Shown here in pieces: positions 35,841 to 37,840 of a stretch of 64,000 nt of DNA. Source of the DNA: an uncultured Mageeibacillus sp. (GTDB lineage: Bacteria > Bacillota > Clostridia > Saccharofermentanales > UBA5734); assembly GCA_964499985.1 (NCBI GenBank), contig CAZCMX010000001.1, positions 10,916 to 74,915 on the forward strand, given 5' to 3'. The notes below the pieces were generated by a model. The model searched no databases. It worked only from the letters and a program-made list of their open reading frames with translations, and was not told where the DNA came from. Every line of letters begins with the position of its first letter. Positions within the stretch are counted from its first letter, which is position 1. Position numbers and translations under genes: made by a program.

Positions 35841-36376
35841 TGGCATACGTGAACATCCGGCCCGCACAGCCAGGCGATTATCCGGCGATCCGGCGTATCC
35901 TGGGCTACTATATCGAGCAGACTACGGCCAGCTGGCGTTACGAGGTTCCTGGCCCGAGCTGGATCGAGCAATTTGCGGCCAGCCACCAGACCCCGGAGCG
36001 GCCGGTATTTGTGGCCGACTTTGAGGGACAGATCGTCGGTTATAGCTGCCTGTCTGATTTTCGGACCTATGAAGGTTATTGGCCCTGTGCGGAAAACAGT
36101 GTCTATGTGCTGCCAGACTATTTGAACCAGAAGATCGGCAGCCGGCTGATGCAGGCTTTGCTGAATGCCGCGGCCAAAACGCGATTGAAAAAAATCATTG
36201 CCGCCATTGATGCCGATAACCAGTCAAGCGTGCAATTCCACGAGCGCTTTGGTTTTGCCATCTGCGGCGAGCTCAAAGACATCGGTTTCAAAATGGATCG
36301 CTGGCTGAGCCTGGTCCTGATGGAACTCGATCTGGCTGAATATCAGGCTGCGCAAACATCCAGCGGGCCCGGCTGA
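35840..36376 (+). CDS. GNAT N-acetyltransferase (phosphinothricin/MSO acetyltransferase-like family)
   Basis: IRPAQPGDYPAIRRILGYYIEQTTASW, VADFEGQIVGY, and QKIGSRLMQALL..A..LKKIIAAI..DNQSSVQFHERFGF form a GNAT acetyl-CoA fold. Its start overlaps the leuA stop (TGATG). Confidence 0.8.
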   Translation: MAYVNIRPAQPGDYPAIRRILGYYIEQTTASWRYEVPGPSWIEQFAASHQTPERPVFVADFEGQIVGYSCLSDFRTYEGYWPCAENSVYVLPDYLNQKIGSRLMQALLNAAAKTRLKKIIAAIDADNQSSVQFHERFGFAICGELKDIGFKMDRWLSLVLMELDLAEYQAAQTSSGPG

Positions 36377-36423
36377 ACCCCAGACCAGGCAAAAGGGGTC
36401 CAGATCTGATATAGGGCACCTGA

Positions 36424-36467
36424 GAAGAGGCTGACTGCCGGATTTTCCGGAACAGCCTCTTTTTCTT
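36424..36467 (+). terminator. Rho-independent terminator after the GNAT gene
   Basis: GAAGAGGCTG ... CAGCCTCTTT stem enclosing an inner CCGG-ATTTT-CCGG hairpin, followed by a T-run. Confidence 0.7.
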
Positions 36468-36480
36468 GATTTTCTCCCTG

Positions 36481-36514
36481 CCAATTAGACAAAATTATTA
36501 TTTTGTCTAATTGG
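36481..36514. repeat. AT-rich perfect palindrome: 15-bp arms with a 4-nt centre
   Basis: CCAATTAGACAAAAT-tatt-ATTTTGTCTAATTGG, read directly from the sequence. It sits between the two convergent terminators. Confidence 0.9.
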
Positions 36515-36521
36515 CGATTTC

Positions 36522-36560
36522 AAAAAAACGCAGCTGGGGGGACTGCCCTGGCCAGCTGCG
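36522..36560 (-). terminator. Rho-independent terminator of the minus-strand 150-aa gene
   Basis: On the minus strand, CGCAGCTGG ... CCAGCTGCG is followed by T7. Confidence 0.7.
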
Positions 36561-36614
36561 GCTGATTTAAGGATCAAGGGGTCGAAACAAGGCCTGATTG
36601 CTGCTCCTCGATGA

Positions 36615-37067
36615 TCAAGGGCTGGCGGTTGTTCCCAGGCTGATGGCCTCACCCAGATGCTTGACGCCAATGATCCGGTACCATTCGGAAAGATCCTGGA
36701 TGGGATTGTAGACATTCAGCAAAAGGATCGCCAGCAGAACGGCAAACAAAATCAGCAAGGCTCTGCGCAAAAAACGCTGCTGGCGTTCGGACTGACGCTT
36801 GCGGTTGATTTTCGCCACCGTGGTATAGCCCTTGAGACGATAGACGCGTTCCTGGCCAACCCGGCGGATCGCCTTGACCGCCTGCTTGCTGTCTCGTTTC
36901 AAATCGAGCTTCAGCTGGCGCAGCCAGAACGGACCATGTTTCTTCAGATAGGCCATCCCCTGGGCCAGCCGGGCTTTCACCGGTTCGAAAAATGCCAGCA
37001 GCCGGTCCAGTCCCTGGGGCTGGGCAGGCCTTACCGGTTGATCAGGTTTGGTATCGAGACTTTTCAA
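36615..37067 (-). CDS. Hypothetical single-pass membrane protein, transcribed divergently from lexA
   Basis: 150 aa with a TTG start 7 nt behind GGAG (AAGGATGGAG). It has a basic N-terminal region of about 100 aa, one TM segment (ALLILFAVLLAILLL) and a 33-aa C-terminal tail. I recognise no domain in it. It has its own terminator. Confidence 0.6.
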   Translation of the reverse strand: MKSLDTKPDQPVRPAQPQGLDRLLAFFEPVKARLAQGMAYLKKHGPFWLRQLKLDLKRDSKQAVKAIRRVGQERVYRLKGYTTVAKINRKRQSERQQRFLRRALLILFAVLLAILLLNVYNPIQDLSEWYRIIGVKHLGEAISLGTTASP

Positions 37068-37136
37068 ATTGCAGCTCCATCCTTTGTGTCCAAATCACAA
37101 GGGATATTATAACGTAAAATCGGGACTGCAACAAAA

Positions 37137-37150
37137 CGAACATAAGTTTG
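37137..37150. promoter_or_regulatory. LexA operator (Cheo/SOS box) 1
   Basis: CGAACATAAGTTTG differs from the Firmicutes consensus CGAAC-N4-GTTCG at one position. It overlaps the lexA -35 TTGACA (37148-37153). Confidence 0.65.
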
Positions 37151-37176
37151 ACAAGGCCATGCCAGTTTGTTACGAT
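37148..37176 (+). promoter_or_regulatory. Putative lexA promoter
   Basis: TTGACA, a 17-nt spacer, then TACGAT. It is bracketed by the two SOS-box-like sites. Confidence 0.5.
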
Positions 37177-37181
37177 TGATT

Positions 37182-37195
37182 TGAACATGTGTTTG
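37182..37195. promoter_or_regulatory. LexA operator (Cheo/SOS box) 2
   Basis: TGAACATGTGTTTG (GAAC-N4-GTTT core, two mismatches to the consensus) lies just downstream of the lexA -10. Confidence 0.55.
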
Positions 37196-37210
37196 TTTTG
37201 GAGGCCTGAC

Positions 37211-37840
37211 ATGACAACCTATCCATTTACCCGTTCCAATGTCGATGACACGGTCAACCGGGTCTATGAATATATTGTCGACTATATCCGGGACAAGGGC
37301 TATCCGCCGGCTGTCCGCGATATTTGTGCCGGGGTCGGGATTCGCTCGACGTCAACCATCCACAGCCATTTGCAGCGCCTGCAGCAGCAAGGCAAGATCG
37401 TCTACTCCTCAGGCAAACGCCGGGCCATCACCATCCCGGAGCAGGAGGCCAACCGTGTGGTCTCACTGCCGCTGGTCGGTGAGGTCACCGCCGGCATGCC
37501 GATCTTCGCCCAGGAGAATATCGAGCGCTTCTTCCCTTTCCCTGCCGATTTCCTGCCGGATGACCGGGATATCTTTGTCCTCAAGGTCAAGGGCGACAGC
37601 ATGGTCGGTGCCGCCATCCTCGATGGTGACTATGTGATCGTCAGGAAACAATCCAATGCCCGGACCGGGGATATCATTGTCGCCCTCGTCGGCGATGAAG
37701 CGACAGTCAAGAAACTGGCCAATGTGGACGGCCAGATTGTCCTCCAGCCGCAAAACCCAGCCTATCCCCTGATTCCCTTTGACAAGCCTGACTGCCAGAT
37801 CCTGGGCAAGGTCTGCGGACTCTACCGGGCCCATGGCTGA
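37211..37840 (+). CDS. lexA: SOS repressor LexA
   Basis: N-terminal winged helix-turn-helix (GYPPAVRDICAGVGIRSTSTIHSHLQRLQQQG), cleavage-site context VGEVTAGMPI, and S24 peptidase Ser in KGDSMVGA and Lys in EATVKKL. The start was set to ATG 37211 behind TGGAGG. Confidence 0.95.
   Translation: MTTYPFTRSNVDDTVNRVYEYIVDYIRDKGYPPAVRDICAGVGIRSTSTIHSHLQRLQQQGKIVYSSGKRRAITIPEQEANRVVSLPLVGEVTAGMPIFAQENIERFFPFPADFLPDDRDIFVLKVKGDSMVGAAILDGDYVIVRKQSNARTGDIIVALVGDEATVKKLANVDGQIVLQPQNPAYPLIPFDKPDCQILGKVCGLYRAHG

Follow-up and report, generated by a model that had tools for sequence, protein, structure and literature searches.

A predicted single-pass membrane protein family encoded divergently from lexA in uncultured Clostridia, with LexA boxes that appear to belong foremost to lexA itself

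The window analysed here is a stretch of 64,000 nucleotides (nt) from an uncultured Mageeibacillus sp. (assembly GCA_964499985.1, contig CAZCMX010000001.1, positions 10,916 to 74,915). It contains a gene for a small membrane protein, called orfX below, which the initial annotation proposed as an SOS-induced inhibitor of cell division, unrelated to the known ones. We find that orfX is a genuine gene and that it is inherited in the slot of yneA and sosA, i.e., divergent from lexA. On the profile searches it founds an unannotated and previously unnamed family. The two LexA boxes between the genes are, judged by their positions, foremost the autoregulatory operators of lexA. For the family as a whole we tentatively favour a LexA-independent function at the membrane, of an adaptor type, on which a LexA overlay has been acquired or retained in this clade. 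A role as an SOS division inhibitor is possible, and we do not favour it for the whole family.

The linkage to lexA was followed in 27 species-representative genomes and in 12 sequence subfamilies, obtained via the encoding contigs and a metagenome scan with alignment A3. Where enough upstream DNA is present, lexA lies divergently upstream of orfX in all 25 genome loci and in 23 of 24 metagenome loci, the sole exception being F-type. This position holds down to 47% identity in LexA and about 30% in orfX. Further, orfX stands at the end of a mutS-mutL-miaA-hfq-lexA block, and the arrangement mutL-miaA-hfq-lexA-orfX-GNAT-leuA-LacI is syntenic across the order. Because the whole block is syntenic within the order, the linkage in 25 of 25 genome loci is weak evidence on its own.

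The subfamilies bear on whether homologues are consistently divergent from lexA, a check that the initial annotation proposed. This holds in eight of the 12 (A, B, C, E, H, I, J and M) and fails in D, K, F and G. In D and K (L032, L039) orfX directly follows hfq on the same strand and lexA is not adjacent. In F and G (L033/L034, L042, L073) it is preceded by genes for a PHP protein and a peptidase M18, again with no lexA adjacent, and the gap between the peptidase gene and orfX is 3 nt in L033. In one J-type contig orfX lies behind a DUF3846 gene. The pairing has been lost four times, and no box was found upstream of orfX in the loci without an adjacent lexA.

The neighbour itself is, by its domains and residues, a bona fide full LexA, with winged-helix DNA-binding and S24 peptidase domains, an Ala-Gly cleavage site (A94-G95) and a Ser/Lys dyad (the GDSM serine and the downstream KK). 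The initial annotation correctly placed two Cheo-box-like sites and a TTGACA-17-TACGAT lexA promoter in the 143-nt spacer that separates orfX from the lexA ATG at 37211, and also an orfX -35 element 2 nt from box 1. Of only three occurrences of the pattern GAAC-N4-GTTY in the 64 kb, two lie here within 57 nt. A box overlaps or abuts the lexA -35 in 25 of 25 genome loci and also in other subfamilies, and in the form CGAAC-N4-GTTTGACA it covers that element in essentially every lexA-adjacent locus, so that the boxes are best taken as operators of lexA. In subfamily B the box is found inside the lexA promoter spacer instead. The promoter scanner calls lexA promoters over the box in other loci as well (TTGACA-17-TAAGAT in L017, TTGACA-17-TAAACT in L009). 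Box 2 is present only in the window's clade and in L006/L007.

The predicted promoters of orfX tell a different story from its position. A perfect TATAAT, often extended to TGcTATAAT, lies no more than about 70 nt upstream of the orfX start in 31 of 34 loci, and several clades share a conserved GTGAAA or ATGAAA as -35. For L017 and L009 the scanner calls GTGAAA/ATGAAA-17-TATAAT as the orfX promoter, with the -35 starting 70 and 12 nt past the box. Only the window's clade has as little as 26 nt between the box and the orfX -10; four loci have 35-41 nt, and all others 48-160 nt. With box 1 just 2 nt away from the predicted, weak -35 of orfX, co-repression is plausible in the window's clade; the closeness is not a family trait, as no other clade has a box within 2 nt of the -35 and none lies near the TATAAT in 20 other loci. 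Weaker LexA sites were sought in these 20 loci from -40 to +45 of the orfX -10, using a position weight matrix derived from 31 boxes, and gave background scores only (-12 to +2 bits, where true sites score 12-22 bits and the 95th percentile of the background is 3.8). Thus, a LexA operator conserved at orthologous orfX promoters was not found in other clades with a clear TATAAT. As the boxes belong to the lexA promoter and the promoter of its neighbour is LexA-free in most relatives, a position divergent from lexA is insufficient to call an SOS gene. This is a caution against assigning guilt by position.

Some of these promoters carry another shared sequence. An 18-bp near-palindrome, ATAATCACTAGTGACTAT, covers the orfX -10 and transcription start and is formed with a CACTAGTGACTATTT that many distant relatives have in common downstream of the TATAAT. 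The latter is seen in L009 (3831-3860), L017 (3779-3805), L020 and other subfamily-A loci, and in a looser form, GTGAyyATTT, in the window's clade. Such sequences might serve as an operator for a regulator other than LexA, or reflect conservation of the 5' end of the mRNA. As a general palindromic operator of orfX the near-palindrome was rejected, since it occurs only in part of subfamily A.

Homologues of orfX are numerous and without annotation. A word-indexed search returned 69, every one described as 'hypothetical' and none with a precomputed Pfam domain; with the diverse alignment A2 as query, the same kind of search yielded no more than 15 proteins. An exhaustive hidden Markov model (HMM) profile search of 1.84 billion representative proteins gave 173 clusters at E <= 1e-3, 125 of them at E <= 1e-10. 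These are clusters at 50% identity, so that the family comprises at least 173 of them. Where source names are present, they are metagenome-assembled genomes labelled Clostridia, Eubacteriales, Oscillospiraceae, Saccharofermentanales, Mageeibacillus or Saccharofermentans. Members of the family were encountered solely in uncultured relatives of Saccharofermentanales and Mageeibacillus within the Clostridia.

The description of orfX as unannotatable and free of LysM was borne out: against Pfam and NCBIfam it matches nothing at E <= 1, LysM (PF01476) included, and ten diverse members of the family gave no significant match to Pfam. Sequence searches of PHROGs, PADLOC and the PDB yielded nothing significant for the family either, and no characterised family was recovered in this way. 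Rfam, searched with positions 36300-37400, returned only a chance match to a long non-coding RNA. A tblastn search against phage and plasmid collections found no match, and we therefore regard the family as chromosomal.

The family signature is RVYRLKGYTT..K[IV]NRK, a transmembrane (TM) helix and NPxKD..E..RIxGI, in fixed spacing. The highest information content, over 149 non-redundant members, is found in the juxtamembrane motif. Alignment A1 has 17 invariant columns, which cluster on either side of the TM helix, in ERVYRLKGYTTVAKINRKRQSERQQRFLR immediately ahead of it and in YNPIKDLSEWYRIIGI immediately behind it; P122, E128 and G134 of the external segment are among the invariant residues. 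Among 202 members [RK][VI]Y.L.GYTT is near-invariant, and in 160 of them the external [ND]P follows exactly 47 residues past the start of the motif. Within the TM helix conservation has a periodicity of about 110 degrees, i.e., one face of the helix is conserved.

Hydropathy and charge agree with the initial annotation on a single TM helix, a long basic N-terminal region and a mostly cytoplasmic protein. The most hydrophobic 19-mer is residues 99-117, and the part ahead of the helix has a net charge of +17, the part behind it one of -1. From this distribution orfX is predicted to be bitopic and N-in/C-out, with 98 residues ahead of the helix and an external tail of 31-33 amino acids (aa). The difference in topology from the known inhibitors, which was also proposed, stands as far as the cytoplasmic bulk is concerned; it is not unique to orfX, as ChiZ has a long basic, disordered cytoplasmic N-terminus ahead of its TM helix as well.

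An AlphaFold2 (AF2) model of orfX has a continuous helix from 81 to 120, with a predicted local distance difference test (pLDDT) of 85-95 around residues 90-120, followed by a short helix, 122-133. Overall the model (pLDDT 66, predicted template-modelling score 0.31) is a set of helices, the remainder being of low confidence. Outside the core the family varies greatly. The N-terminus ahead of the motif has 8 to 293 residues, the tail beyond the external segment 0 to about 190, often rich in Ser/Thr, and some relatives exceed 400 aa. The unit under selection is thus a rigid element of three parts with invariant spacing (basic cytoplasmic motif, TM helix and short external helix), with a variable external tail on one side and, on the other, an N-terminus that evolves fast and is mostly disordered. 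In subfamily I (L031 and P0147, P0153, P0155, P0157, P0212 and P0213; about 385-500 aa) the tail is a conserved extracellular C-terminal domain of about 150 aa. This domain has no Pfam match, and the AF2 model of a long member of subfamily I, made with six sequences, has a pLDDT of 39 and is unusable. A possible likeness of GYTT..K.NRKR to a motif of ribosomal protein L33 was also considered.

We suggest that the likeliest core job of orfX is a LexA-independent membrane function, because it has a LexA-free promoter of its own and survives away from lexA. Family-wide, the gene would be driven by this near-consensus promoter. Acting as an adaptor, the protein would use its invariant juxtamembrane motif to dock a cytoplasmic partner, while the conserved TM face and the external helix would contact a partner in the membrane or in wall synthesis. 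In the window's clade the intergenic region is compact and box 1 is next to the orfX -35; here LexA probably dampens orfX as well, and DNA damage would raise its expression. The SOS input would then be an overlay specific to this clade and not the defining feature of the family.

Several points weigh against this adaptor proposal. Its mechanism is generic and the partner only hypothetical, and all promoters discussed are predictions. In the AT-rich lineages L035 and L064 the boxes fall on or beside plausible orfX promoter elements, so LexA control of orfX may be commoner than a survey anchored on TATAAT suggests, and it may have arisen more than once. In subfamily M the other neighbour of lexA is an aldose epimerase gene and not hfq, and lexA and orfX are still paired, which supports the positional analogy to yneA and sosA. 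Finally, every characterised Gram-positive gene in the lexA-divergent slot is an SOS division inhibitor (PMC6851548; PMC13396833).

These last points lead to the proposal of the initial annotation, that orfX is the SOS-induced division inhibitor of its lineage. It would then be an unrelated analogue of YneA, SosA, DivS and ChiZ. Cleavage of LexA would derepress orfX, and the TM helix with its conserved flanking segments would bind the septal peptidoglycan synthase (FtsW/FtsI, FtsQLB) and so halt septation until the inhibitor is removed by proteolysis. We consider both the role and this mechanism unlikely, albeit worth weighing. The slot rule and the shared architecture speak for it (one TM helix, external C-terminus and a conserved segment after the helix; PMC6851548), as do the targeting of FtsW via the TM domain as a proposed common theme (PMC13396833) and a YneA-like LysM gene in the same slot of C. 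thermocellum (PMC8457756). In the family itself, it is favoured by the depth to which the divergent position is conserved, its retention in subfamily M, the closeness of box 1 to the orfX -35 in the window's clade, the conserved TM face and the TTG or GTG start codons of several members. However, the 20 other loci have no LexA site at the orfX promoter, and from near-consensus TATAAT or TGnTATAAT promoters an unrepressed inhibitor would be toxic. Four subfamilies are unpaired and without a box, two of them with orfX directly behind a housekeeping-type peptidase gene. Moreover, the strongest constraint is on the cytoplasmic motif, unlike in YneA and SosA, which depend mostly on their TM and external parts, and the core of orfX evolves about as slowly as LexA, in contrast to the fast-evolving known inhibitors.

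A bolder version can be speculated upon, although we think it rather doubtful. The family could represent division checkpoint proteins of Clostridia that are coupled to lexA and form a new class without homology to the known ones. Unlike YneA and SosA, these would work through the invariant RVYRLKGYTT..KINRK as well as through the TM and external helices, and they would be under LexA control in some clades and otherwise controlled in others, e.g., post-transcriptionally or by proteolysis. To the best of our knowledge, this large and mostly uncultured clostridial branch has no known SOS division inhibitor. YneA, SosA, DivS, ChiZ and SidA each revealed a different way of stopping the septal wall synthase, and an inhibitor family with an invariant cytoplasmic motif would, if true, point to a new contact with the divisome.

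Alternatively, only gene order may have been inherited. In that case orfX would encode an ordinary envelope protein at a conserved replichore end, beside the dif-like site described below, and any effect of LexA on it would be incidental. The syntenic block agrees with this, and in D and K orfX still follows hfq with lexA simply missing; the conserved dif-like palindrome and the switch in gene orientation lie immediately downstream. Against this, the pair is kept in the rearranged context of subfamily M and across several deeply diverged subfamilies, and we hold inherited order alone to be improbable as the full explanation.

Much less probable still is a membrane-tethered modulator of the SOS circuit, whose basic cytoplasmic motif would target LexA, RecA or repair factors. 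Such a protein would explain a linkage to lexA without LexA control, as the adjacency persists despite the independent orfX promoter; nucleic acid or the acidic surface of a protein could be the ligand of the invariant, highly basic motif, and DNA-repair genes are nearby (mutS/mutL, and rarA in L033). However, the idea is purely inferential, the profile searches gave no homology to known SOS modulators, and the family persists away from lexA.

Finally, that orfX is a chance ORF (open reading frame) or a mis-called gene has nothing but its unusual TTG start in its favour and is ruled out by conservation, as the ratio of nonsynonymous to synonymous substitution rates (dN/dS) is 0.06-0.09 against four relatives with 80-83% protein identity, hundreds of homologues share the invariant motifs, and orfX comes with a ribosome-binding site, a promoter and a terminator of its own. 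The 150-aa ORF, the good Shine-Dalgarno sequence and the terminator are all where the initial annotation had them, see Table 1. The Shine-Dalgarno sequence is kept in close relatives. The TTGTTG-17-TATAAT promoter can likewise be recognised by eye, and it is not listed by the promoter scanner owing to its weak -35, which matches at three of six positions.

The start codon differs from that of the close relatives, which have an in-frame ATG 12 nt (four codons) upstream of the TTG (window 37068-37084 compared with 3989-4001 of L001-L005). In the window a difference of 1 nt takes this ATG into another frame, in which just 12 aa (MELQFEKSRYQT) would be translated from it, and the TTG is therefore taken as the start of orfX. 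Several other members of the family also start with TTG or GTG.

Table 1. Features of orfX and lexA in the window, in window coordinates.
Feature	Position	Strand	Description and basis
orfX coding sequence	36615..37067	-	150 aa, TTG start; from the ORF list; founder of the RVYRLKGYTT bitopic membrane-protein family
Cytoplasmic juxtamembrane motif IRRvGqERVYRLKGYTTVAKINRKRQSERQQRFLRR	36762..36863	-	Codons 69-102; alignment A1
Predicted single TM helix	36711..36773	-	Codons 99-119; hydropathy and charge, AF2
Conserved extracytoplasmic segment YNPIQDLSEWYRIIGV	36663..36710	-	Codons 120-135, directly after the TM helix
Shine-Dalgarno sequence of orfX AAGGATGGAG	37075..37084	-	GGAG at 37075-37078, 7 nt from the TTG; read in the sequence
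Predicted orfX promoter	37106..37134	-	-35 TTGTTG at 37129-37134, 17-nt spacer, -10 TATAAT at 37106-37111; by eye
Predicted intrinsic terminator of orfX	~36521..36559	-	GC-rich hairpin followed by a T-run; terminator scan and sequence reading
lexA coding sequence	37211..37840	+	209 aa; TIGR00498 at 1.6e-60, PF01726, PF00717
Predicted lexA promoter TTGACA-17-TACGAT	37148..37176	+	Promoter scan, 10 of 12 positions matched
LexA (Cheo) box 1 CGAACATAAGTTTG	37137..37150	.	Overlaps the lexA -35; 2 nt from the orfX -35
LexA box 2 TGAACATGTGTTTG	37182..37195	.	In the lexA leader, downstream of the lexA -10

Downstream of orfX, between its terminator and that of the convergent GNAT gene, there is a perfect palindrome of 16+16 bp, GCCAATTAGACAAAAT-tatt-ATTTTGTCTAATTGGC, at 36480-36515. 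Its core, TAGACAAAAT-N4-ATTTTGTCTA, is unique in the window even at three mismatches and is exactly conserved in 19 related loci that were fetched, while the flanks diverge. The palindrome is always found just after the orfX transcription unit. It marks the end of this unit and not orfX itself, because extra genes on the same strand stand between orfX and the palindrome in two loci, one for a 316-aa polytopic membrane protein (L008, 4435-5385) and one for a 233-aa HAD-like hydrolase (L021, 4262-4963).

The inner 6-4-6 architecture matches that described for dif sites, and the half-site ATTTTGTCTAAT agrees at nine of 12 positions with the dif half of Frankia given in PMC3025954. Gene orientation flips at about 36.4-37 kb: left of this point the plus strand carries 24 of 30 long ORFs, and right of it the minus strand carries 14 of 17. 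There is also a change of sign in the AT skew here, and an extremum of the cumulative GC skew. The convergent orientation suggests a terminus; the weak GC skew has the opposite sign to the usual excess of G on the leading strand. The palindrome is thus a candidate dif (Xer) or replication-terminus site with which the sign of the GC skew fits poorly, and alternatively it may be an operator or the promoter of a small RNA (TTGAAA-18-AATAAT, minus strand, 36523-36494). In two subfamilies a gene for an XerC/D-type tyrosine recombinase (Phage_int_SAM_1 and Phage_integrase) lies near orfX (L040, 6463-6726; L043, 2065-3057), in L043 convergent with orfX and 5 nt away. These recombinase genes may relate to the dif-like site or to a mobile element.

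How does orfX compare with known systems? The rule that a small membrane protein encoded divergently from lexA is an SOS division inhibitor, on which the initial annotation built, is real in the literature: in Bacillus, Listeria, Mycobacterium, Corynebacterium and Staphylococcus the gene for the SOS division inhibitor lies next to lexA (PMC6851548). These inhibitors are mutually dissimilar in sequence; each has a single TM helix and its C-terminus outside the cell, and two of them, DivS and SosA, are without LysM (PMC6851548). In C. thermocellum the lexA-divergent gene, Clo1313_1450, is YneA-like, with a LysM domain and LexA sites detected by DNA affinity purification sequencing (PMC8457756). 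According to a 2026 study, the TM helix of YneA binds TM7 of FtsW and LysM is needed; ChiZ, SosA and SidA are predicted to target FtsW also, and targeting by the TM domain is proposed as a common theme (PMC13396833).

Like orfX, YneA of Bacillus subtilis and Listeria is a small single-pass protein with an external C-terminus, whose gene is divergent from lexA and shares with it an intergenic region with LexA boxes. However, the cytoplasmic N-terminus of YneA is very short and its activity depends on an external LysM (PMC13396833), whereas orfX has no LysM, about 98 cytoplasmic residues with an invariant motif, and in most cases a promoter without a LexA site. SidA and DidA of Caulobacter are also small inner-membrane proteins, which halt late division via FtsW or FtsN (PMC13396833; PMC4211646). 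Unlike orfX they are from Proteobacteria, very short, not adjacent to lexA and unrelated in sequence and topology.

ChiZ (Rv2719c) of Mycobacterium and DivS of Corynebacterium share with orfX the adjacency to lexA and the single TM helix, and DivS also the lack of LysM (PMC6851548). ChiZ has a C-terminal LysM, unlike orfX, and the RVYRLKGYTT and NPxKD motifs are not known in ChiZ or DivS. SosA of Staphylococcus is lexA-divergent as well, with one TM helix, no LysM, a highly conserved stretch right after the helix and a variable extreme C-terminus (PMC6851548). The same arrangement is found in orfX, where NPxKD..E..RIxGI directly follows the helix and the C-terminus is predicted to be external. 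On the other hand, SosA has only 77 aa, its TM helix is N-terminal and its activity is in the external part, in contrast to the 150 aa of orfX with mass and strongest conservation in the cytoplasm; the Pfam and NCBIfam profile libraries reveal no similarity between the two. The proposed analogy to YneA and SosA is therefore supported in part: on its sequence, orfX has no LysM, its orthologues do not appear to share a LexA site at their promoters and D, K, F and G have lost the pairing, but the gene occupies the right slot beside lexA and its product has the right general, bitopic shape.

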